This document shows positions 3,730 through 61,955 of a stretch of DNA of 64,000 bases, piece by piece. The notes below the pieces were generated by a model. It made no database searches and was not told the DNA's origin. It saw only the letters and a program-made list of their open reading frames with translations. The DNA is from Candidatus Buchananbacteria bacterium. GTDB taxonomy: Bacteria > Patescibacteriota > Patescibacteriia > Buchananbacterales > UBA6539. A program made the translations under genes and the position numbers. Each line of letters opens with the position of its first letter. Position 1 is the first letter of the stretch. The stretch is taken from assembly GCA_041664165.1 (NCBI GenBank), contig JBAYLH010000004.1, forward strand, positions 11,974-75,973, written 5' to 3'.

Positions 3730-6483
3730 TTATATTTCAGAGGCTTTGATAATCCTAATTTTGCCGCCGGCATCCAAAGAAACAGTGTCACGGCGATTAA
3801 TCTGGCCGGCAATTAAAAAATTGGCTAGCGGATCTTGAACTTTTTCCTGAATTAACCGGCGCAAAGGCCGGGCGCCGAATTCCGGGTCAAAGCCTTCGCT
3901 GGCTAATTCGGCCAAGGCTTGAGGGGAAGCGATTAAACCAATCCCCTTTTCGGAGAGATTTTTTCGGACTTTATTAAGCATTAAGCTGGCAATTTTTTGG
4001 ACGTCTTCCAGGCTCAGCGGTTTAAAGACAATTACGCCGTCAAACCGATTTAAAAATTCCGGCCGGAAGTACTGATTTAATTCCTTTTCAATCAGCGTTT
4101 GTTTGATTTGTTCAAGCGGAATATTTTGTTTGACCATTTCCTGAATTGATTTGGTGCCGGCATTGGAAGTGGCGATGATAATTGCGTTAGTAAAATCAAT
4201 CGTTTTCCCGCCGCTGTCAGTCAGCCGGCCGTCATCCATAATCTGTAAAAAGATATTTAAAATGTCAGGGTGAGCTTTTTCGATTTCATCAAGTAAAACC
4301 AAGGCAAATGGATTTTTTCGGACGGCTTCGGAAAAATAGCCGCCTTCTTCGGTCGTGCCGATTAAACGGTTAATACTGTTTTTTTCCTGATATTCGGACA
4401 TATCCAGCCGAATCATATTCTCTTCCGCGCCAAAATAAACTGCCGCCACGGTTTTAGCCAGTTCGGTTTTACCGACGCCGGTCGGTCCCAAAAAGAGTAA
4501 ATTAACGATTGGCCGTTTGAGATCGCGCATTTCGGCTCTGGCTCGCCGCAGACTGGCCGCCACCATGGCCACGGCTTCTTGCTGGTCAACCATTCTTTCG
4601 TGAATTTTATCTTCCAAATTAAGCAATTTTTCCGACTCTTCCTCGGTGATTTTGGTCAGCGGAATATTGGTTTTTTCCGAAATAATTAAAGCTACGTCGT
4701 TGGCGGCAATTAGAGAATTTTTCCCTTTTTGGTCGTGAGATCTAGCGGCGACTTCCTGCATAATCTGAATCGCCTTTTCCGGCAAAAAGCGGTCATGCAA
4801 ATAGCGGTCAGAAAGTTTTACCGCTTCTTCGATGGCATCGTAAGAGAAAAAGACCTGATTATGATATTCAATGGCGCCGGCTTTGGCTTCTAAAATTTGA
4901 ATGGCTTCGTTGCCGGAAACTTCTTCAACATTGATTTTTTCCAAGGAATTATCAAGCGAGCTTTTGCCTTCAAGGTAGCGGTGATAATCGCCGGGGGTAG
5001 TCGTGGTTAAGCACAAAATTGAATTATTAGCCAAAGCCTGAGCTAAAACATCCGCCAAATCAATACTGCCCTGCCGGCCGGCGGTAATGCCGATCATATT
5101 ATGAATATCGCCGATATATAAAATTATATTGCCGGATCGCCGAATTTCACTGAGGATTATTAATAATCGCTGCTGGGCTTCGGCCGGGCTGACGCCGCTG
5201 ACTAATTTGGCAACGCTTAAGCTGACTAAGCGCTTATCTTGCAAAAATTTCGGGACGTTTTCTTCGACCATGCTTTGAGCTAAGCCTTCGATGATGGAAT
5301 TTTTTCCGACGCCGGGGTTGCCGACTAAAATTACGCTGCGCCGGGTGCCGCCGGACATGATATTGAAAATGGATGCGATTTCTTTTTCCCGGCCGACGCA
5401 GGGCACTAAATAGCCGGCCTGGGCCAGTAAAGTCAAATCTTGGCTGAAAGTATCCAAAGCCGGCGTGGCAATCGCGGTCATTGACCGATTCATGGTATTT
5501 TTCGGCCGCAAGCCGGCTCGGCCTCGGAAATGCTGCCAGTTTTCCCGCAGCTGCCGCCTGATCCGTAGCCAGGCGATGACATTGGTAATTTTATCCAAAG
5601 TGATGTCGATATCGTAAAGCACTTCCTTAACTTCGTTATCTTGATTAGCCAAAGCTTCTAAAAGTTCGGTGATGTCAACTTTTTTTTGCCGCAGCTGGTA
5701 AGCCAAAAAATAGGCTTGAAAGATTATTTCTTTGATTTTATTGCTTAAAATCGCCGGTAATTCCGATTTTAGCGGCTGCTTCGCCAAAATTTTGGCAATT
5801 TTAGATTTTAAAGCCGAAAAAGAAACCCCAAGCCGGGAAAAAATTATTTGCGTCTGCTCAAAAGTCAGCAAAGCGACCAAAAGATGAATGGGATTAGTTT
5901 TTTCGTCATCGTAGCGGTTGGTTAACTGCCAGGCTTTAGTGATGGCCAAACTGGCTTCAGGGGTAAAATAAGGAGTGATATCGATTTTTTTATTTTTCGG
6001 CAATTGCTTGAATTCTTGCCAGCTGATCGGTTTTAAAATCAAATTTTCCGCCTCGAATTTTCTTTTTGGAATATGCTTGATTTTTTCCAATTCTCTTTGA
6101 AAGCGATAAAACAGGTAGCAATTGGAAAGCATGGAAAGCCAGAAAATAAAAAGTTGCCAGTTATGGATTAAAAAAACATACCAAACCGGAATTTTTTGTT
6201 CCACGGCGGCAAATAAAACCCAGCCAAACATTAAAACTCCCAAAACGCCAAAAAGGATTAAAGTCAAATTAATAACGTTTTTGACGAATAATTTGACTTG
6301 ATCCTGGGTAATCTGCAAGAAGTTGATTTTTTTGCCCCAATAAATTATTTCGCTGCCGGTCCAGGCGACTAAACCCAGCCCGTCGCACTCAATGCAGTTT
6401 TTTCTGTCAATTTTGCCGTTGCCTTGGCAATTAGGGCAAACTAAAATTTGCAGCTGTGATTTTTCCGGTTTGACTTCCGCCAT
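3730..6483 (-). CDS. ClpC/ClpB-family AAA+ chaperone ATPase with N-terminal Cys4 zinc ribbon and two transmembrane segments
   Basis: 917 aa. N-terminus CPNCQGNGKIDRKNCIECDGLGL, then hydrophobic helices. Two AAA modules with Walker A motifs GNPGVGKNS and GPTGVGKTELAK, plus Clp_N-like repeats. Confidence 0.75.
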   Translation of the reverse strand: MAEVKPEKSQLQILVCPNCQGNGKIDRKNCIECDGLGLVAWTGSEIIYWGKKINFLQITQDQVKLFVKNVINLTLILFGVLGVLMFGWVLFAAVEQKIPVWYVFLIHNWQLFIFWLSMLSNCYLFYRFQRELEKIKHIPKRKFEAENLILKPISWQEFKQLPKNKKIDITPYFTPEASLAITKAWQLTNRYDDEKTNPIHLLVALLTFEQTQIIFSRLGVSFSALKSKIAKILAKQPLKSELPAILSNKIKEIIFQAYFLAYQLRQKKVDITELLEALANQDNEVKEVLYDIDITLDKITNVIAWLRIRRQLRENWQHFRGRAGLRPKNTMNRSMTAIATPALDTFSQDLTLLAQAGYLVPCVGREKEIASIFNIMSGGTRRSVILVGNPGVGKNSIIEGLAQSMVEENVPKFLQDKRLVSLSVAKLVSGVSPAEAQQRLLIILSEIRRSGNIILYIGDIHNMIGITAGRQGSIDLADVLAQALANNSILCLTTTTPGDYHRYLEGKSSLDNSLEKINVEEVSGNEAIQILEAKAGAIEYHNQVFFSYDAIEEAVKLSDRYLHDRFLPEKAIQIMQEVAARSHDQKGKNSLIAANDVALIISEKTNIPLTKITEEESEKLLNLEDKIHERMVDQQEAVAMVAASLRRARAEMRDLKRPIVNLLFLGPTGVGKTELAKTVAAVYFGAEENMIRLDMSEYQEKNSINRLIGTTEEGGYFSEAVRKNPFALVLLDEIEKAHPDILNIFLQIMDDGRLTDSGGKTIDFTNAIIIATSNAGTKSIQEMVKQNIPLEQIKQTLIEKELNQYFRPEFLNRFDGVIVFKPLSLEDVQKIASLMLNKVRKNLSEKGIGLIASPQALAELASEGFDPEFGARPLRRLIQEKVQDPLANFLIAGQINRRDTVSLDAGGKIRIIKASEI

Positions 6484-31402: not shown

Positions 31403-32503
31403 TTACAAAATTAAAATATTACTCGCCACCTGCTCAACAAAATGAAATTTTACTAAAATCATTGCTAAGAGCAAAGCGATCAAGGCGACGCTTTGCAAAA
31501 TAACCGAAGGATGCTGAATGTCAATCCGGATAAAAATATTTAAAATTAAAGAAATTATCATAAAAATCAAAAAGGCAATAAAGAAAATGTTTGAGTACTC
31601 AATGACAAAATCAATTAACTTTCTCGTATTATCAGTTGTAACCGTTATCACCCCCTCATTATTGGGTAAAAGGCTGCCGGGTAGGCCATTCTCGCTAATA
31701 TTGACATTATCATCAATGTTTTGTTCCCCGGCTACTTTTGGTTTTTTGACCGTTTCTTCGGGCGTTATCTTTGGTTTAGCCGTTACCGGTTGTTCGACCG
31801 GCTTACCAGCCGCAAGCGAGCTCAGATCCTTTCTCTGAGTACCAAAAAATTCAACTAACAAAGTCGTTCGGTGGCCGGAAAGCTGGCCGCTCAAAACAGC
31901 AACGCCGATTTCCTTGTATTTATTATTCAAAATATTGCGCCGGTGAGTCGGGCTTTTCAAGAAAGCTTCGGAAACATCTTCGGCATTGGTAAAATCCATA
32001 GCGAGATTTTCGCCCGCGTAAACGTAGTCGTATTCCGATCGGTCAATCCATTGCCAGGGTTTTTTGCCTTCCGGCGTATCGTGGGCAAAGTAATTGCGGT
32101 TAATCATGTCTTGTCCCTTTAGCTCGGCAAATTTAACCAAAACAAAATTTTCTTTTAACGGTTCTACTCCGGCTTCCACTCGCGATTTATTGACTAAAGA
32201 GATAATATTTTTGGAAATTATGGCTGAAAGCTGAGCCGGCGTCGGATAAGTAAAAAATAAAAAACCGGTCACTATTACTTTGACTAAAATGGCGGCAACG
32301 GCAAAATTAATCAGGCTTTTTGACCTTAAAACTTTCGGCTGGTGATTGTTGCCCGAATAAGGAATAAAGAGATCTTTGAGCAAATTGGCTGAATCACGAA
32401 AAAACCGGGGAAAGTTTTCTTGACCCCGAGATAATTCTTTAATTTCCCGCTTTTGACCGGCAAAGAATTTATGCCACTTGGATTGTTTTTTAGAATTAAA
32501 CAT
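31403..32503 (-). CDS. CAP (SCP/PR-1-like) domain protein, membrane-anchored
   Basis: 366 aa. N-terminal [15 protein letters not shown] motif, then a TM helix. CAP core NRNYFAHDTPEGKKPWQW...GENLA...SPTHRRNIL..YKEIGVAV; C-terminal TM anchor. Paralogue of 55834..57735. Confidence 0.65.
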   Translation of the reverse strand: MFNSKKQSKWHKFFAGQKREIKELSRGQENFPRFFRDSANLLKDLFIPYSGNNHQPKVLRSKSLINFAVAAILVKVIVTGFLFFTYPTPAQLSAIISKNIISLVNKSRVEAGVEPLKENFVLVKFAELKGQDMINRNYFAHDTPEGKKPWQWIDRSEYDYVYAGENLAMDFTNAEDVSEAFLKSPTHRRNILNNKYKEIGVAVLSGQLSGHRTTLLVEFFGTQRKDLSSLAAGKPVEQPVTAKPKITPEETVKKPKVAGEQNIDDNVNISENGLPGSLLPNNEGVITVTTDNTRKLIDFVIEYSNIFFIAFLIFMIISLILNIFIRIDIQHPSVILQSVALIALLLAMILVKFHFVEQVASNILIL

Positions 32504-37709: not shown

Positions 37710-37750
37710 TTGATTGACGGAGCCCTTACCTTGATTAATAGTATCCAATT

Positions 37751-37821
37751 CTCGGGGACAGGGAGTCGAACCCCGATTACCAGAGCCAGAATCTGGCGTC
37801 CTACCATTAGACGATCCCCGA
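37751..37821 (-). tRNA. tRNA-Gln (anticodon CUG)
   Basis: UCGGGGA-UC-GUCU-AAUGGUA-GGAC-G-CCAGA-UUCUGGC-UCUGG-UAAU-CGGGG-UUCGACU-CCCUG-UCCCCGA-G. U1-A72 and G73 as in bacterial tRNA-Gln; G18G19 and T-loop UUCGA present; CCA not encoded. Confidence 0.75.
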
Positions 37822-37949
37822 GAATTGGATACTATATTTTCTAAAAATCTTTTGAATACCTGGCCATAACAGGTTAAACATTAGACCTGCCTGTCGGCAG
37901 GCAGGCGATCCCCCGAGTTTTGGGGCTAAACGATTAAATTTAATCTATA

Positions 37950-39541
37950 TTATTCAACCAGCTGACCGCCGAAAGACTGCAAAACATTATCAATTGAATC
38001 CTGGCTGGTTTTGGCTTCCGCCAAGGTAGCCACTTCGACTTTCTCTTCGGGCAAATCTTTAACCACGGCCGTTCTGACTATCAGCTGAACGCCGAAAACA
38101 TCGCGCAAAACCTGTTCTAAAATCAGGCGATTTTTATTATCATTAACTCGCTGCTGGTGGAATTTATGGCGAAAGCAGACTTCCAAAATACCGTCTTCGC
38201 CGACAGTTGACGGCTGGGAAATTCTCAAAGTTGAAGCCAGGCTTTGGTTATATTTTTTTAGGCAAATCAAAACTTCCTCCCATTTTTCCTTGACCTGGTC
38301 CAAAGTTAATTTGACTTTAGCGATTGGTATTTTCGGAGTTTCTTTTTCCGGCTCTTTTTCTTTCACTTCCGACTCTTCGATTTTCAAAATCGGCTCGGTT
38401 TTTAGACCCGATCCCCCGCCGCCTTGCGGCTTATCATCGGAATGGCTATCGTCGCCAATTATTTCCAAAACCGCCAACTCCAGCGGCAGCTGTAAAATAT
38501 CGGCAAACTTTAATTCCTGTTTTTTTACTAAAATAATTTCAATGATCTTAATTAGAAATTCCAGGGAAATTTGGCTGGAAACTTCAATCGCTCTTTTTTC
38601 CAAATCCTTACTCAAACCGCCGGTGAATTCATTAAGTTGGCTGCTGACTTTCATCAGCAAAATTTTTCTTAAAACTTCGATTAAATCGCCGGTAAATTTA
38701 TCCAAATCAATCCCCTCGGAAACCAAGCGGTTGATTAAGCCGATCGCGCCGGCCGAATCTTTCCGGTTTAAAAATTCAATGAATTCCAGGACTAAATCAA
38801 ACCGGGAACGGGGCAAAACTAATTCGGCTTGTTCGGCCGTAATTTCCTTGTCGCCCAAAGATAAGATCTGACCCAGCAGGCTTTCCGCATCGCGGATGCC
38901 GCCTTCGGCGTAGTAAGCGATATTTTCTAAAATCGACTGGCTAACGACCTTGCCTTCTTTTTCAGTGATAAAATTCAGCCGCTTGGCGATCTCAAGCTCG
39001 GAAACTTTGCGAAAATCAAAATGCTGGCAGCGAGAAATAATCGTTTGCGGCACTTTATAAATTTCCGTGGTCGCTAAAATAAAAATGGCATGAGCCGGCG
39101 GTTCTTCCAAAGTCTTAAGTAAGGCATTAAAAGCCGAAATTGACAGCATGTGGACTTCATCGATAATGAAAACTTTGAATTTCCGGCTGGTCGGCGTAAA
39201 TCGGGAATTATTAATGATATTTTCCCGGACGTTGTCAACGCCGGTGTGCGAAGCGGCATCAATTTCAATATATCCAAAGACCGGGCCGCCATCATTTCCT
39301 GGCAGGAATCGCAGACATTGCAAGGCTCGCTTTCGTTCGGCTGGCGATTTGAGCAATTCACCGCTTTGGCCAAAAGCCGCGCCGTCGTGGTCTTGCCTAA
39401 GCCGCGGGGACCGGAAAATAAATAAGCATGAGCGACTTTGCCGGTTTCCAGCTCGCTTTGCAAGGTAGTTTTGATATGGTTTTGACCGACCACTTCCTTA
39501 AAGGTTTGCGGCCGGTATTTGCGGTATAAAGCCAAGGACAT
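37950..39541 (-). CDS. dnaX: DNA polymerase III subunit gamma/tau; reading frame interrupted (apparent -1 shift near 39281..39300) inside the N-terminal ATPase domain
   Basis: Frame A (39541->) MSLALYRKYRPQTFKEVVGQNHIKTTLQ...GPRGLGKTTTARLLAKAVNC...CNVCDSCQEMM. Frame B continues NDGGPVFGYIEIDAASHTGVDNVREN...FIIDEVHMLS...ISRCQHFDF. The switch falls in the GC run ccgggccgcc. Confidence 0.8.
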
Positions 39542-55833: not shown

Positions 55834-57735
55834 TTAAATAATAATCAAAATCGCGACTAGAGTAATAAACCCTAAAGTTGATAAAATAAGATGAGGATAT
55901 TGTTTTTTAATTTCAATAAAAATACTAAGCAACAAAGAAATCACGGCAACAACTAAAATAATTTCATAATACCAGCTGGAAACATCAAAAATCAGCTCAA
56001 CATTTTTTAGCGGATATGATTTAATAAATAAGTATTGCTTGATCAGCGAAGGCTTGACCGGAATAATATTTTCCCAGCCCAAATCAATAGTCTCGGCATT
56101 GCCATACTTGTCCTCAACCGTTAAGCTGGGCAAAGTAATGGTATCAAAAACTTTATTTTCAATATTTTTGTAAACTATCATCTGGCCTTCCCATTCTTGA
56201 AAGCCGCCCGATTCCGATTCGGCCGGCGCTAAAGCAATCCGATAATTATCAAAATTAACTTCCGCTTTAACCGCATCGGAGTTTAAATAGACTATTGCTT
56301 TGATAATCTTATCGGCTTGGTTGGTCGGCGAGACTAAAACCACTTTGCTTTTCTGTAAATCAATTTCCGGCGGCGTGCCGTCAACCATTAATTCATAAAT
56401 CGCTGAACTACTATTTTGTTCACCCTTAATCGCGGTAAACTTAATTTTTTGTTCGCCGCCCGGAAAGCTGACTGAAAAATCAAAAAAATCGCTTTGCCAG
56501 GATTGACGTTTAGCCATTTCGACGCCATTACTATAAAGCGTTACTGTTTCCGCTTTCGGTGCGTAAACGATGAATTTAACCGCTTCATTAATTCCGGCCG
56601 AATTACTGCTTGAAAAAATCATCACCGGCGCGGCTAAAACTTCCTTAATCTCCGGCTGAACCGGCAAAGGCTGTTCTAGTGGTTTTACCGGCGCGGCTAA
56701 AACTGCTTTAACCTCAGGTTTGACTGGTAAAGGTTTTACTACCGGTTTTGCCGGCAGGGTTTGATTGATATTTGCCGGTATCGGTTTCACTGCCACTTTT
56801 GCCGGCGGCGGCACTGGCGCCGGTTTAGCTACATTAGTATTAGTTTTTTGCTCGCTTAAAACATTAGCTGGTTTATTCACCGCCGCATTAACTAGTTGGA
56901 TATTGGTATTAGTTATCGCTGGTTCCGGCTTGACTTGAACTGACGGTTCAACCGGTTTTTCGTTTTCCCGCCAATTACCCGCGCTCGGAGCGGCAAGATA
57001 CTGAGCCACCAAGGTCGTATCGTGCTGATTATAATTGCCGGAAATCATGCCAACGCCAATTTCGGAAAAATCCGGATCAATCAAATTGGCATAATGAGTT
57101 TTGCTTCTCGTCCAGGCCGCCACCACTTCATCGGCGCTGGCAAAACCCATGGCTAAATTTTCCCCGGCCACATCGTATTTATAGCCAATGTTGGCAATCC
57201 AATCGGCTAAATCCTTGTTATCCGGTCCGATATGAGCAAAATATTGATTAATTAGCATGTCTTGAGCCTTGGCAAAAGCGGCTTGGTCTAATAGACTGCT
57301 TTCTTTGACTATCGGCACTTTTAAATTCTGTCTGATCCGATTGGTTAATTCAACGACTCTTCGGCTTTCTTGAACCATTAAATTCGGAGTTAGCCAGGCA
57401 CCGGCCGGAAAAAACAAAACAAAGCCGGTAACAACGGCTTGAACCAGCAAAACCGCCACGGTATAAAAAAGCAGCCGGCGCGGCCTTAAAATATAAGGCT
57501 GATAATTGTTGCCGGCATAAGGAATGAATAAATCTTTTAAATCAAGCGGGTCTAACGGATTACGGCCCTGTTTAACTTCGTCGCCATCGGAAACTCCGTC
57601 TTGATCAGTATCGGGATTATTAGGATCAGTCCCGTAGATATTGATTTCTTCATAATCAGTCAAACCATCCTTATCGCTGTCAATATTCAATAAGTTGATA
57701 TAAACTGGTGATTTTTTTCCTTTATTTCTACTCAT
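55834..57735 (-). CDS. CAP (SCP/PR-1-like) domain protein with N-terminal thrombospondin-type-3-like Asp-rich repeats, proline-rich linker and C-terminal TM anchor
   Basis: 633 aa; [12 protein letters not shown]...[17 protein letters not shown]; [15 protein letters not shown] + TM; CAP core [10 protein letters not shown]...GENLA...[16 protein letters not shown]; tandem KP(L/V)PV(K/Q)PE(V/I)K repeats. Confidence 0.65.
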
Positions 57736-57797: not shown

Positions 57798-57841
57798 AAA
57801 AAAAAGACCTCTGGAAATTCTTTTTGGGAATCACCAGAGGC
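57798..57841 (-). terminator. rho-independent terminator of the high-GC lipoprotein gene
   Basis: Minus strand GCCUCUGG...CCAGAGGUC then U8. Confidence 0.6.
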
Positions 57842-57882
57842 GTAATTGAATTACTTTTGTCCGCAATCCTCCTTTGAGCGGA

Positions 57883-60800
57883 CTAGTGTTGGCGGATGAC
57901 GCTTTGAACCGCCAAACTGTGCGGAATTTCCGGTGGCGTGGTCTGCGCTACCGGGTCATGGCCGCAAAGCGGAACAGATTCACCATTGGCCACCAGAAAC
58001 GCCATGATATCGGTCGCATTGGCATCACTGGAAACCGTGACGATGTTGCACGCCCAACTTCCGTCGGCATTGATCGTCGTCAGCGGGGTCTGCCAGGCGG
58101 GTTTGATGCTCCAGAGAGTGGTCACCTTGATGTATACGGCGATCTTGAACATTGCCGGATCCACGCCGGTTACTACGCCCTGTAGCGAGCCGTTGACGGC
58201 ACCATAAGGCGGTACCGAGGTGAACATAATCCTCGGCGTCCGGTCGACCCAAGCCCGAGCCAAAACCTGCGAATCAGGGATTGACGGCGGGGCTTCGGTG
58301 CCGATGAGTTCCGGCGCCGTAACGTTATTGGCGATCAGAAATGCCAGAATCTCGCCGGCATACTGATCGCGCCCACCTGTAACAATGTTGCACGCCCAGG
58401 TCCTATCGGGGTTGGGAATCGTATAGCGACTCCCGCCGAAGTCCGGCTTGGTCCACCAACGCTTGACGCCGGCATCATCAGCCACGCGGATATAAACGGC
58501 AATCCGCGCCGCTGCCGGATCAATATTCCGGACGTTACCCTGGAGCGAGAAGTCCTCCACATTGCCGAACTCCGGAATGTGGCGGTTAAAGTCAATCGTC
58601 GGCAAGCCGGCTGGGTTGACCGTAACATGGACTACCTGCGAAGCGAAGTTCCCCGAGCTGTCGGTGAGCTTCACCGTGATCGTGGTATTCCCCGCCGTGG
58701 TTTTGGCCGTAACCGTCATCTTGGTTCCCACAATGGAAACCGTGATTAGGCCGCTGTCAAAACCAGTCGCTGACCAAACCGGCGCCGGGTCATAGCTGTC
58801 CGAACCAGCCAAGGTGACTTCAACGGAAGCCTCCTGGTCTAGCGTGATGTCGGCAAGCGGGTTAATAATCGGCCTAGTCGTATCGACGACATACACCGTT
58901 CTCGTCTTCGGTACGGCAACATTGCCAGAACCGTCATGAACGTTGTACGTCAATGCGTGTTGGCCGACGTGATGGATATCGACGGTGCCGGTAATAACTA
59001 TGGCTGCCGTCAAATTGCCATCATTGTCATCGGTGGCGGTTGCTCCGGGATCCGTATATTGCGCCGCGGAATTAACCTCCACAGTTTGCGGATTTTGTCC
59101 CAAAAGCGTAATCACCGGCGGCGTCGTATCCGCAGCGCGAACCACATGAACGACCCGAGTCGCTGTTGCCGTGTTGCCGGCCGCATCAGACACCGTATAG
59201 GTAATCGTGTAATTACCGACCACCGAAGTATTCACCGTGCTGACATAGGTAATGTTGGTGCTAATGTCGCCGTCATAGTTGTCGACGGCATGTGCTCCCA
59301 GGTGTGGATATGAGCCAGAACCAACCAGCACGGTATCCGGGTTATAACCCAAAATCGTAATGACCGGTGGCGTGGTGTCCGTAGCGCGAACGACGTGAAC
59401 CATGCGCGTTACCGGCATGGCTGAGTTACCGGCGGTATCGCTGACGTTGTAGGTCAGCACATAGTTGCCGATTACGGTCATGTTGACCGTACCAGCAACC
59501 ACGATCCGGCTCGTGATATTGCCATCGACATCGTCGGTGGCGGTTGCACCCGGGTCACTGAAATGGGATGCGGAGTAGACCTCGACAGTCATTTCCGCCG
59601 TTCCCAATCTGGTGATAACCGGCGGGATGATATCTCTGCCAACACCACGGTTAACCCAGACGTACGCCACGGCGCCGAAATCTTCCGGCGTCGGCAACGT
59701 TGTCTGACCGTTTAAGGTGGGCACTACGCACCAGAAAGGCACCAGGTAGGCCCAGATTTCGGTCGCGTTCTGATCGTTACCGCCTGTCGTAATGTCACAG
59801 GCCCAACGACCGTCGCTACCGATATCGCTTAGCGGGTTTCCAAACGATGGTTTAGTCCACCACCCGCCGCCGACACGCTCGACTACGGCCACTCGGAATA
59901 GCTCCTGATGGATGCTGGAAGCCACGCCTTTAAGAATACCTTCCGTATCGCCGTAAACTGGCACATACGTGAAGGCGATCAGCGGCACACGGCTAATAGC
60001 GACCGACGCAACCGCGTCATCAAGGCACGGAATATCACCGCCGCAAACCGCTTTGGTCGGCCTGATCTCGCAGGGAACAGAAGTTCCCACAGGAACCAGA
60101 TATGCGATAACTTGCGATGCCCTCTCATCGTCAGGCATCATCGTGATGTCGCACGACCAGGTCCCGTCGGTATTTACTAGTACCAAGACACCACAGTTCG
60201 GTTTCAAGTGCAGGACACCATCTACTTTTTTAATGTAAACGGCGACGCGGTAATTGCCGAGCTGAGCCGACGGAATTCCGGTAATGACTCCGTGAGCCAT
60301 ACCATTCTGGTCGCCGTAGGCCGAAACCTCAGTGAAGTTAATGCTACCGTTGGTATCGTAGTCGCCATGATCAACCGGCACTCTCACCGCGTATGCCGAG
60401 GCCAAAGTACCAGCGACGTACGGCTGCTGCCCAATTGAAGTACTAGGCAGCACTGCTGTCTTGGGAACGACTACGGCCAGATACTGATCGGCCAAATGGT
60501 CGCTACCGCCCGTGGTCACATCGGTTCCCCAGTTACCGCCGATAATCGGCGTAAAACCGGCTTGGCCGTAACCTGGCTTGATATACCAAACACCTTGGTA
60601 AGACAGGTAGACGGCGACGGCATAGTTACTGAGCTGGTCAACCGGAACGCCGGTAACCACCCCGTACAAGATGCCGTTAAGATCGCCGAATTCCGGAACA
60701 TCCGTGAATCTGATGTTCACGTTTTCGACTGTTCCGGGTTGACCAGGAATGGGATCGAGAAATACCTCCGCCGGCACAAACTGCCGCGGCGGTACCTCGT

Positions 60801-61344
60801 TGGAAATCCCAGTCACCCTGACTTTGTAGGTGCCGGGGTCGAGGTTTTCGAATACGGCAAACAGATAGGCTCCGTCGCCGTGAACAATTTCCATTGTCTG
60901 CACCCTCGCCGTCACCGAGGTAACATTGAGTTGGTGTGACATCGCGTACGCGTATGGAAGCGGAAAATACCGCCCCTGATAGTCATACACATAGTAACAT
61001 CCTTGGAACCAGTAAACGGGCTGATTTTGATAATTCATGTCCACGCGATGAAGCGTGACATTTTCCACGACCCCGAATTGGGTCGTGTATACCGCGTCCT
61101 CGGGCATCCATTGCCCGGCCGCGGAGAGGGACATCAGTTGGAACGTCACCTTCTGGACGTTGTCGTTTTTGACAAACGCCCGCGCGTCCCAGGTGCCATC
61201 AGGCCGCTGAACCGTATCCGCTTCGTAATCAAAAGCCGGAGCCGGTGTTACTTGTTGAACCGGCGGGCAGCCCGGAAGCACACCCGCGACGATAAACATC
61301 ATCGCCAGTAACACTGTCATTCTCAGTATCTTCATCTTGGTCAC
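57883..61344 (-). CDS. giant secreted repeat lipoprotein (five ~90-aa repeats + three Ig-like/DUF5011-like domains); compositionally foreign (high GC)
   Basis: 1153 aa. Lipobox VLPGC. Repeats of the form F(T)xVPxYGxxxGxLxGVxxG...AVYIxV...WxxKP...WACNIVTGG...AFLVAN; PPVIT...DPGATATDDxDGN(I/L)T modules x3. The ORF is ~58% GC against ~40% flanks. AAGGAG SD 9 nt upstream. Confidence 0.7.
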   Translation of the reverse strand: MTKMKILRMTVLLAMMFIVAGVLPGCPPVQQVTPAPAFDYEADTVQRPDGTWDARAFVKNDNVQKVTFQLMSLSAAGQWMPEDAVYTTQFGVVENVTLHRVDMNYQNQPVYWFQGCYYVYDYQGRYFPLPYAYAMSHQLNVTSVTARVQTMEIVHGDGAYLFAVFENLDPGTYKVRVTGISNEVPPRQFVPAEVFLDPIPGQPGTVENVNIRFTDVPEFGDLNGILYGVVTGVPVDQLSNYAVAVYLSYQGVWYIKPGYGQAGFTPIIGGNWGTDVTTGGSDHLADQYLAVVVPKTAVLPSTSIGQQPYVAGTLASAYAVRVPVDHGDYDTNGSINFTEVSAYGDQNGMAHGVITGIPSAQLGNYRVAVYIKKVDGVLHLKPNCGVLVLVNTDGTWSCDITMMPDDERASQVIAYLVPVGTSVPCEIRPTKAVCGGDIPCLDDAVASVAISRVPLIAFTYVPVYGDTEGILKGVASSIHQELFRVAVVERVGGGWWTKPSFGNPLSDIGSDGRWACDITTGGNDQNATEIWAYLVPFWCVVPTLNGQTTLPTPEDFGAVAYVWVNRGVGRDIIPPVITRLGTAEMTVEVYSASHFSDPGATATDDVDGNITSRIVVAGTVNMTVIGNYVLTYNVSDTAGNSAMPVTRMVHVVRATDTTPPVITILGYNPDTVLVGSGSYPHLGAHAVDNYDGDISTNITYVSTVNTSVVGNYTITYTVSDAAGNTATATRVVHVVRAADTTPPVITLLGQNPQTVEVNSAAQYTDPGATATDDNDGNLTAAIVITGTVDIHHVGQHALTYNVHDGSGNVAVPKTRTVYVVDTTRPIINPLADITLDQEASVEVTLAGSDSYDPAPVWSATGFDSGLITVSIVGTKMTVTAKTTAGNTTITVKLTDSSGNFASQVVHVTVNPAGLPTIDFNRHIPEFGNVEDFSLQGNVRNIDPAAARIAVYIRVADDAGVKRWWTKPDFGGSRYTIPNPDRTWACNIVTGGRDQYAGEILAFLIANNVTAPELIGTEAPPSIPDSQVLARAWVDRTPRIMFTSVPPYGAVNGSLQGVVTGVDPAMFKIAVYIKVTTLWSIKPAWQTPLTTINADGSWACNIVTVSSDANATDIMAFLVANGESVPLCGHDPVAQTTPPEIPHSLAVQSVIRQH

Positions 61345-61564
61345 TCCTTTTCTTTTGTGCCGTCATTGGCACGTTGGACTCAACCTTGCACCCTCAACAA
61401 ACGCTAAAACCGCCTCATTGGCGGTTCTCATAGCTAACTTTTAGTTTTTCCTTTTTCTCCTTTACTCATACTCATCAAATTGTCAAGCTACCATCCGCAT
61501 CAATCAGCCTTTTATTTTACGCTAATTTTAGTTGTTTTGTCAAGTTAAAGTCTTGTTAAGCTAA

Positions 61565-61600
61565 TAACAAAAATTCTCTGATTTAAGAGAATTTTTGTTG
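61565..61600 (-). terminator. terminator downstream of the 61617..61955 gene
   Basis: AAAAAUUCUCU-GAUUUA-AGAGAAUUUUU, perfect 11-bp stem, U-rich 3' side on the minus strand. Confidence 0.5.
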
Positions 61601-61616
61601 ATTTGATTATTAAATT

Positions 61617-61955
61617 TTAGTCCTTGGTAATCTTACCCAAAACAAACATGATTATTGACAAAACAAGACTGAATAACAGCGCCCATAAAAACCCGGCCAC
61701 TTTAAATCCGGGCACAATCGCGCCAGTCAGCATTACCAAAGCGGCATTAATCACCAAGGTGAATAAGCCAAGCGTCAAAACATTAATCGGCAAAGTCAGG
61801 ATTACCAAAACCGGTTTCAAAATCGCGTTAAGCAAACCTAAAATCAAAGCGGCCACCAGCGCGGCGAAAATATCAGTAATCGCAATACCAGGCAATAAAT
61901 AAGCCGTGATAATAACGGCCAAAGTTGCCACTAACCATTTGAGTAAAAATTTCAT
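61617..61955 (-). CDS. small four-helix membrane protein (DUF360/holin-4-like family, tentative)
   Basis: 112 aa; four hydrophobic helices; LPGIAITD...LKPVLVILTLPINVLTLGLFTLVINA. Confidence 0.4.
   Translation of the reverse strand: MKFLLKWLVATLAVIITAYLLPGIAITDIFAALVAALILGLLNAILKPVLVILTLPINVLTLGLFTLVINAALVMLTGAIVPGFKVAGFLWALLFSLVLSIIMFVLGKITKD

Follow-up and report, generated by a model that had tools for sequence, protein, structure and literature searches.

Sharp changes of base composition within bacterial genomes are routinely taken as signs of recent gene transfer. The DNA analysed here (64,000 nucleotides of contig JBAYLH010000004.1 from a Candidatus Buchananbacteria bacterium, referred to as the window) shows such a change over one gene on the minus strand, which is predicted to encode a surface lipoprotein of 1150 residues. 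The question is whether the high GC content of this gene was brought in recently or is maintained where the gene now stands. An initial annotation of the window had favoured recent horizontal acquisition from a high-GC donor. Comparison with related loci points elsewhere: the gene is probably an anciently conserved resident which encodes a lipid-anchored surface protein in a clade of the candidate phyla radiation (CPR), its GC content being held by a force specific to the gene. An island of a single gene that persists across hosts whose GC content at third codon positions (GC3) ranges from 0.19 to 0.45 is a clean counter-example to the routine interpretation. Internal controls are provided by the flanking genes, which have followed each host in composition.

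A single GC-rich gene in the window

Calculated in 400-nt windows, the GC content is 0.54–0.585 between approximately 57800 and 61400, as against 0.37–0.39 before and 0.36–0.43 after this segment (the island). The 64 kb have an average of approximately 41% GC, and the island is the only stretch of more than 500 nt that reaches at least 50%. It coincides with one open reading frame (ORF) on the minus strand (57883..61344), which has 1153 residues if counted from the first in-frame GTG. This GTG overlaps the Shine–Dalgarno sequence; the likelier start is the ATG at 61335, giving 1150 residues, and P0227, an independent gene call on other contigs, starts at the same ATG. The coding sequence (57883..61335, stop codon 57885-57883) has a GC content of 0.559 and a GC3 of 0.638 (0.58/0.46/0.64 for the three codon positions), compared with 0.335–0.452 and 0.32–0.51, respectively, for the remaining 38 sizeable ORFs. 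The dinucleotide signature differs as well: the distance delta* between island and host is 273, that for host segments of the same size 45 ± 12. Windowed and per-gene values confirm the initial annotation in that GC content rises sharply over one ORF and falls at both ends; this gene is an outlier among the ORFs of the window, which contains no second high-GC gene. The single ORF also stands, but the annotated length of 1153 residues holds only from the GTG, and the Shine–Dalgarno spacing is 8 nt, not 9.

The abrupt change of composition, and nothing else, would fit an assembly chimera in which a high-GC fragment was fused into a low-GC contig. However, an intact ORF with host-type promoter, Shine–Dalgarno sequence and terminator extends across the whole island. 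In a separate data set (JGI), contig L002 agrees with the window at 100% identity for 8257 nt, which include both GC boundaries; additional Logan/ENA contigs, the longest of 178 kb, encode the identical protein, and the gene arrangement recurs in five other metagenome loci. The identical junctions in other assemblies, together with the gene's own promoter, Shine–Dalgarno sequence and terminator, mean that the island is not a chimera, a possibility of negligible probability that is refuted for practical purposes. The initial annotation was therefore right in treating it as a monocistronic gene with host-type signals and not as a chimeric join. In public data, NCBI assigns the identical protein (P0001/P0227) to a metagenome-assembled genome of Candidatus Buchananbacteria (CPR/Patescibacteria).

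Orthologous genes at related loci

Strong orthologues were found at four loci, namely the window, L001, L008 and L009; those at L010 and L053 are weaker. The window gene has a GC3 of 0.64 in a host with a GC3 of 0.45. Its orthologue at L001 (P0002, 1156 residues, 40% identity to the window protein) has a GC3 of 0.61 and a GC content of 0.545, in a host with values of 0.19 and 0.30, respectively. At L008 (P0084, 1044 residues, 36% identity) the island GC3 is 0.72 against approximately 0.44 for the host, and at L009 (P0091, 1156 residues, 40% identity) 0.58 against approximately 0.30. The two weaker orthologues have a different N-terminal domain: P0086 of L010 (1225 residues) has a GC3 of 0.47, the host being at approximately 0.33, and P0229 of L053 (1063 residues) has 0.46, the host being at approximately 0.30. 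Among the loci, the excess of GC3 over the host ranges from +0.13 to +0.42.

In all four strong loci, the gene directly downstream encodes a membrane protein that combines TSP3 repeats with a CAP domain; in the window, this protein has 633 residues (55834..57735, minus strand) and its gene a host-like GC content of 0.416. It also has a Pro-rich linker and C-terminal transmembrane segments. L001 agrees with the window downstream of the island gene (TSP3/CAP gene, three genes for GT2 glycosyltransferases, two for large membrane proteins) and differs in its upstream neighbours. At L053, two small genes lie between the island gene and the TSP3/CAP gene, and the downstream order is as in the window. 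At L008 and L009, the island gene is located between hrcA-grpE-dnaK-dnaJ and the TSP3/CAP gene. A single-domain member of the repeat family described below, with host-like GC content, is encoded just downstream of hrcA-grpE-dnaK-dnaJ in Nealsonbacteria (L006, 6001-6519). The gene may originally have been located beside these four genes, as at L006, L008 and L009. Among the four strong loci, the island proteins share 35–40% identity, the TSP3/CAP proteins 54–67% and the GT2 glycosyltransferases 61–67%.

Three further observations were made at the related loci. L001 contains an unrelated lipoprotein gene (4827-5393, 189 residues, ILTGCP) with a GC content and a GC3 of 0.45 each in a genome with a GC3 of approximately 0.19; no homologue was found in the window or the other loci. 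The inverse case is found in L011 (3400-7500), where a lipoprotein cluster of 46–52% GC, including a family member with three repeats, lies in a genome of approximately 60–63% GC (GC3 approximately 0.75). In the gene for P0229 (L053, 10511-10618), a perfect 51-nt duplication within the part encoding an acidic linker (EGEGEIPTEGE) shows recent small-scale repeat turnover.

The transcription unit

The promoter of the window gene (61514..61543, minus strand, as are all signals given here) has the form TTGACA-18-TAAAAT, and its −35 region CTTGACAAA is invariant in the four orthologous loci. This results from comparison of the promoter and leader regions of the window (61336-61600), L001 (9840-10126), L008 (9661-10000) and L009 (2017-2324): all four have a promoter of the type CTTGACAAA-N17/18-TAAAGT or TAAAAT and a leader of 180–250 nt, the GC content of which is intermediate (0.38–0.44). 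In the window, the leader is approximately 178 nt long (61336..61513, GC 0.44) and contains the Shine–Dalgarno sequence AAGGAG (61349-61344, 8 nt before the ATG at 61335) and a terminator-like hairpin (61428-61406), which could be an attenuator or part of an mRNA-stabilising leader. The leader as a whole folds no better than shuffled sequence (z = −0.45). An intrinsic terminator follows the gene (57798..57841; stem-loop 57841-57807, then U8), and the 88-nt terminator region folds with −26.8 kcal/mol (z = −3.5). No match was found for the island and its flanks in an Rfam search. With this arrangement, the gene would be transcribed alone: transcription would start at a near-consensus promoter, pass through a long leader and end at a strong terminator.

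Age of the gene and the question of transfer

The age of the island was assessed from synonymous sites. When window and L001 are compared at conserved residues encoded by four-fold codons, the third position is the same in 0.36 of cases for the island gene, with 0.27 expected; for the flanking genes, the pooled agreement is approximately 34%, with approximately 25% expected, and is thus equally near saturation. The GC content at four-fold sites differs between window and L001 by approximately 0.45 in the flanking genes and by 0.09 in the island gene. In codon usage, the correlation is r = 0.77 between the two island genes, but r = 0.17 between the L001 island gene and its own host. A lag in amelioration was considered and rejected: in rough two-state arithmetic, the approximately 1.5 substitutions per site between window and L001 would leave less than 10% of the disequilibrium and bring GC3 down to about 0.26 or below, while the L001 gene is at 0.61. 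From the conserved locus, the GC content independent of the host and the saturated synonymous sites, it follows that the island's GC content is not left over from a recent transfer.

The initial annotation had assumed the opposite, i.e. that a gene for an adhesin had recently come in from a donor of high GC content, with amelioration still to follow. The GC step limited to one gene and the large delta* value agree with this, as does the GC richness of many carriers of the repeat domain, for example Anaerolineae and Acidobacteriota. However, the same gene occurs at the same locus, with a CPR-type promoter, in at least four deeply diverged genomes, where it is GC-rich in hosts of approximately 30–45% GC, and two-thirds of the GC excess in the window come from amino acid composition (see below). 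Recent import is largely refuted by these orthologous loci alone; four to six separate insertions at one spot, each gaining the same promoter, are implausible.

The donor searches point in the same direction. Searches of 5.8 billion clustered proteins and of 1.84 billion representatives yielded full-length homologues in CPR-like contexts only, and no closely similar gene that would identify a donor lineage. The GTDB genome contigs, a collection that does not include the window's own genome, yielded no relatives when scanned with an alignment of two orthologues; a scan of metagenome contigs yielded the L001 contig only, and scans of viral contigs with the domain and the whole protein yielded nothing. 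No integrase, transposase, adjacent tRNA, or att-like or other flanking direct repeat was found at the island. The only tRNA of the window is far away (37750-37822), and the neighbours of the island are genes for Nramp, MgtE, a PF04020 protein, CAP and GT2 proteins. Taken together with the synonymous divergence, which is as saturated as that of the flanking genes, this makes recent import very improbable.

Transfer might also have been recurrent, the gene at this locus being replaced again and again from a GC-rich reservoir such as Buchananbacteria of approximately 56% GC; the copies would then be young in their present hosts, with L010 and L053 as older, partly ameliorated cases. GC-rich Buchananbacteria appear to exist: the strain names of Candidatus Buchananbacteria at NCBI carry numbers of 33–56, which by naming convention we take to be GC percentages (approximately 33–56% GC); if this is correct, the candidate phylum varies widely in GC content. 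The variation of the GC3 excess among the loci, the intermediate GC content of the leaders and the stronger divergence of the island proteins compared with their neighbours would also fit. Against this stand the searches, in which no orthologue was found in a GC-rich genome, the foreign composition of the gene in every host seen, the lack of integration scars at the island, and a synonymous divergence equal to that of the flanking genes. Homologous recombination demands high sequence identity, and homologous replacement between lineages is unlikely because the flanking proteins are only about 60% identical (approximately 55–67%), which would be too diverged. We regard recurrent import as quite unlikely.

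Components of the GC excess

The claim that a codon usage rich in GCC, CCG and GGC distinguishes this gene from every other gene in the window proved wrong. The host itself prefers these codons (GCC 0.45, GGC 0.59, CCG 0.55), and the GC content at four-fold sites, 0.67 in the island, lies within the host range (0.61 ± 0.07, maximum 0.75). It is at two-fold sites that the island deviates, with 0.54 compared with 0.28 ± 0.04 in the host, i.e. by approximately six standard deviations. Within two-fold pyrimidine families, the island favours codons ending in C (AAC, TTC, TAC, ATC, GAC), and codons ending in G (CCG, ACG, GTG, CTG, AAG, GAG) have risen to the same extent. The codon usage of the window host is two-sided, GC-ending in four-fold (0.61) and AT-ending in two-fold families (0.28); in the L001 host, both classes are AT-ending.

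The amino acid composition is also unusual. Ala, Gly, Pro, Thr and Val make up 47% of the residues, compared with 21–40% in the proteins of other genes, and Lys, Glu, Leu, Ile and Phe are depleted. As Asn, Tyr and Arg are not shifted, this resembles the composition of an extracellular beta-sandwich protein more than the result of generic GC pressure. For decomposition of the GC excess, the amino acid sequence was re-encoded with host codon frequencies. This gave a GC content of 0.511 for the window gene (observed 0.559, host genes 0.412), so that approximately two-thirds of the excess stem from protein composition and one-third is synonymous. For the L001 orthologue, the re-encoded value is 0.401 (observed 0.545, host 0.303). 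The excess would thus have two layers, one given by an amino acid composition typical of extracellular beta-sandwich proteins and the other by a gene-wide shift to G- and C-ending synonymous codons, common to all orthologues at any host GC content.

Forces that may hold the GC content high

As the synonymous shift is common to the orthologues whatever the GC content of the host, a gene-specific force must be keeping it. We propose, tentatively, that this force has held the principal surface or attachment gene of the CPR clade at approximately 55% GC (GC3 approximately 0.6–0.7) through saturating divergence, in genomes of 30–45% GC.

Several candidates for the force were tried and rejected. Selection for translational accuracy is contradicted by a GC3 that does not change along the gene and is the same for conserved as for variable residues, and by the normal GC3 of genes for ribosomal proteins and chaperones. 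A protein sequence that forces high GC content is contradicted by the repeat domain itself, which in 38 named genomes has a GC content that varies with that of the host (r = 0.88, slope 0.69) and which in the single-domain Nealsonbacteria gene has a fully host-like GC3 of 0.23. Other beta-rich surface proteins of the window (DUF11, SdrD_B and the second CAP protein) are likewise host-like in GC content. Recent intragenic gene conversion has little support as a driver, since the internal repeats are at most 78–83% identical over 78–199 nt and thus, as DNA, old. There remains a gene-wide bias towards GC with bounds that roughly correspond to the transcription unit.

Such a bias could be linked to expression, if the product were a major envelope or S-layer-like protein, very abundant, with codons and amino acids tuned for translation and cost. 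S-layer genes have a similar layout, being monocistronic with a strong promoter, a long leader and a strong terminator. The monocistronic layout found here, with a near-consensus conserved promoter, long leader and strong terminator, and the preference for C-ending codons in two-fold pyrimidine families agree with this possibility. For mass-produced particles, PMC7360931 reports that GC content can increase when less costly amino acids are selected. Yet G-ending codons have risen just as much, GC3 is no higher at conserved residues, and highly expressed genes keep the GC3 of their hosts (ribosomal protein L25 in the window; DnaK, GrpE and L31 in related loci including L008). Expression-linked selection is therefore an unlikely explanation.

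The reading of an ancient resident gene under a gene-specific force has to be weighed against several points. For the force there are two candidates, biased gene conversion at a recombination hot spot in a surface gene and selection that acts on the transcript, both compatible with the present data. The island genes resemble one another in dinucleotide signature, but this likeness is confounded by the Thr- and Val-rich protein composition common to them. Only four strong and two weaker loci are available, all of them metagenomic, and vertical descent is deduced from synteny and comparable divergence, without a species tree. If Buchananbacteria of approximately 56% GC exist, a GC-rich reservoir or a GC-rich ancestor is conceivable. 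Either the base composition of a single gene is set by a local force that has gone unrecognised, or the way in which this gene is exchanged is unusual. Should a resident gene under such a force be the correct reading, a sharp GC island of one gene in a host-attached bacterium with a reduced genome would be the sign of a long-lived adhesin or contingency locus and not a scar of transfer, and the CPR clade would be a tractable natural system in which to test what determines local base composition in bacteria.

Domain architecture of the protein

All domain coordinates refer to the minus strand and residue numbers to the 1150-residue protein, unless stated otherwise. The signal peptide MKILRMTVLLAMMFIVAGVLPG (61267..61335; pattern MKILRM...VAGVLPG) is followed by Cys-23, which was read from the sequence as the predicted lipidation site. 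As criteria for a lipoprotein we used a positively charged n-region, a hydrophobic core, and a lipobox of the pattern [LVI][ASTVI][GAS]C with an invariant Cys. G22-C23-P24 is invariant between the window protein and P0002, and the Cys is aligned in all four orthologues, where the lipobox reads LPGC, LVGC, SPGC and MTGC. The LPGC end of the signal peptide given by the initial annotation thus stands, with the qualification that Pro at position −2 is non-canonical; this atypical residue weighs against the lipid anchor that is part of our reading. Lipidation at Cys-23 is accordingly only predicted. Neither lgt nor lspA was seen among the genes of the 64-kb window.

An N-terminal domain (residues 24-205, 60721..61266) is specific to this orthologue group (alignment A6). 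Its AF2 model is all-beta (pLDDT 65). It has no meaningful fold match in PDB and no match in Pfam or NCBIfam, and nothing scored in a profile search with alignment A6. Three copies of an unannotated beta-sandwich domain of approximately 95–120 residues follow, R1 (residues 206-325, 60361..60720), R2 (329-448, 59992..60351; profile match) and R3 (449-565, 59641..59991; the best-scoring profile stretch). Next are three Ig-like modules of family PF16403 (Bact_surface_Ig-like, formerly DUF5011), located at residues 571-650 (59386..59625), 656-733 (59137..59370) and 739-817 (58885..59121). The third is a PF16403/HYR module, with the best stretch at 745-819 in the numbering of the 1153-residue form. 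A further beta domain (821-908, 58612..58875), which is kept in orthologues, appears from its sequence character to be Ig/cadherin-like; no Pfam match exceeded the threshold. The protein ends with two more repeats, R4 (909-1030, 58246..58611; profile match) and R5 (1031-1150, 57886..58245).

The initial annotation had described five repeats of about 90 residues and three Ig-like modules (PPVIT...DGN(I/L)T), and had suggested an HMM search for the latter. The profile matches five stretches, which confirms the repeats with a length of approximately 95–120 residues, and the search identified the modules as PF16403 (162.7 bits with a cut-off of 27, E = 2e-48, three stretches). The orthologues vary in the number of Ig modules and in the presence of R5. 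As annotated, no catalytic domain was found (Pfam, NCBIfam); an SLH domain was not found either (Pfam). The mature product would thus present, in this order, the lipidated Cys-23, the clade-specific beta domain, R1–R3, three PF16403 spacers, the Ig-like domain and R4–R5. A non-catalytic, multi-domain surface protein of the lipoprotein type is a reasonable description.

The repeat domain and its possible function

The repeat domain has no model in the Pfam and NCBIfam libraries searched, and neither the N-terminal domain nor the five repeats have a sequence match in PDB. An AF2 model of R5, based on an alignment of 65 sequences, is a beta-sandwich (pLDDT 90.2, pTM 0.85) without a match to PDB folds at E < 0.01. 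Approximately 2000 representative proteins from Bacteria and Archaea match the repeat domain and constitute a family so far without a model in these libraries. Carriers include Methanoperedens/Methanosarcinales archaea, Chloroflexota, Acidobacteriota, Planctomycetota, Verrucomicrobiota and several CPR groups. The domain also occurs alone, in secreted proteins or lipoproteins of 125–175 residues. Among 66 multidomain relatives, the commonest partner is glycoside hydrolase family GH17 (19 proteins), with the repeat domain directly C-terminal of the GH17-like barrel; GH16 is the partner in two. The Methanoperedens protein P0003 (L003/L015, 906 residues) has one N-terminal repeat copy, 44–47% identical to R3–R5, followed by a GH16-like ExDxE region (EMDIEF), a motif read by eye where Pfam is blank.

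Since the beta-sandwich is often fused to GH17 or GH16 glucanases or secreted alone, the repeat domain may be a glycan-binding module. Here, two points count against our interpretation: domain co-occurrence is the sole basis for glycan binding, and the best resemblance to a carbohydrate-binding module is weak (8wae, TM-score approximately 0.5, E = 0.07). If the assignment is correct, the five repeats define a new, widespread glycan-binding module. In that case, the protein might serve as a multivalent adhesin or envelope protein of the lectin type, with Ig spacers holding the domains off the membrane, and is a strong candidate for the molecule by which episymbiotic CPR cells bind glycans of host or matrix. 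It probably works with the neighbouring TSP3/CAP membrane protein and may be functionally tied to the adjacent glycosyltransferase cluster as well.

Comparison with known systems

The three Ig-like modules match the Ig domains of Moritella Chitinase 60 (PDB 4mb3; E = 1e-9), one of the surface proteins with tandem PF16403/HYR domains, and are probably rigid spacers holding out other domains. Unlike in those proteins, the modules make up only about 22% of the island protein, the rest is unmatched and there is no catalytic domain. The repeat resembles the carbohydrate-binding modules of GH17/GH16 beta-1,3-glucanases in being a non-catalytic beta-sandwich appended to glycoside hydrolases. It differs in lying outside the families in the libraries searched, in showing no significant fold similarity to solved modules, and in occurring here five times without an enzyme.

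With S-layer and other major envelope genes, the island gene shares the monocistronic arrangement, the strong conserved promoter, the long leader and the strong terminator, and its product is likewise a large secreted beta protein rich in Thr, Val, Gly, Ala and Asp. In contrast to S-layer proteins, it has a predicted lipobox and neither an SLH nor another known anchoring domain. A classical genomic island has the same sharp step, atypical codon and dinucleotide usage, and surface-protein cargo. The present one, however, is a single gene without mobility genes, tRNA or repeats, which is found at one conserved locus even in distant relatives, is saturated in synonymous divergence and has not drifted to host composition.

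GC-rich loci for adhesins or antigenic variation in reduced-genome bacteria are the P1 operon/RepMP of Mycoplasma pneumoniae, MgPa/MgPar of Mycoplasma genitalium and vls of Borrelia; those of the mycoplasmas appear to be the nearest parallels. They resemble the island in that the main surface or attachment gene of a host-attached bacterium with a small genome is markedly richer in GC than this genome, as a stable property and not a remnant of transfer. A literature search on GC-rich genes of CPR bacteria and the GC content of Mycoplasma adhesin genes yielded no usable statement. Unlike the island, these loci recombine with dispersed partial copies, and they have no sequence homology to it. Partial cassette copies were not found in the 64-kb window (at the DNA level or in translation) or in related loci, and no reverse transcriptase domain of a diversity-generating retroelement was present among the ORFs of the window.

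Other features of the window

The rest of the window is an ordinary CPR chromosome with genes for ClpB, TGT, RecJ, LepA, MurJ, FtsW, acetate kinase, DnaX, L25 and numerous glycosyltransferases. The window has 40-odd real ORFs of 150 residues or more, every one of them on the minus strand, an extreme co-orientation over 64 kb. The upstream neighbour of the island gene (61617-61955, minus strand) encodes a small PF04020 protein ('phage holin 4_2') with four transmembrane segments, beside Nramp and MgtE; nothing else nearby is phage-like. Two proteins of the window have a CAP (SCP/PR-1-like) domain (31403-32503 and 55834-57735, both minus strand), of which only the latter was noted to have TSP3 calcium-binding repeats. 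The dnaX gene (37950-39541, minus strand) consists of two overlapping ORFs in different frames, one encoding the N-terminal DNA_pol3_delta2 part (39074-39541, 155 residues) and the other the rest (37950-39356, 468 residues). This split could be due to a frameshift, a sequencing error or programmed frameshifting.

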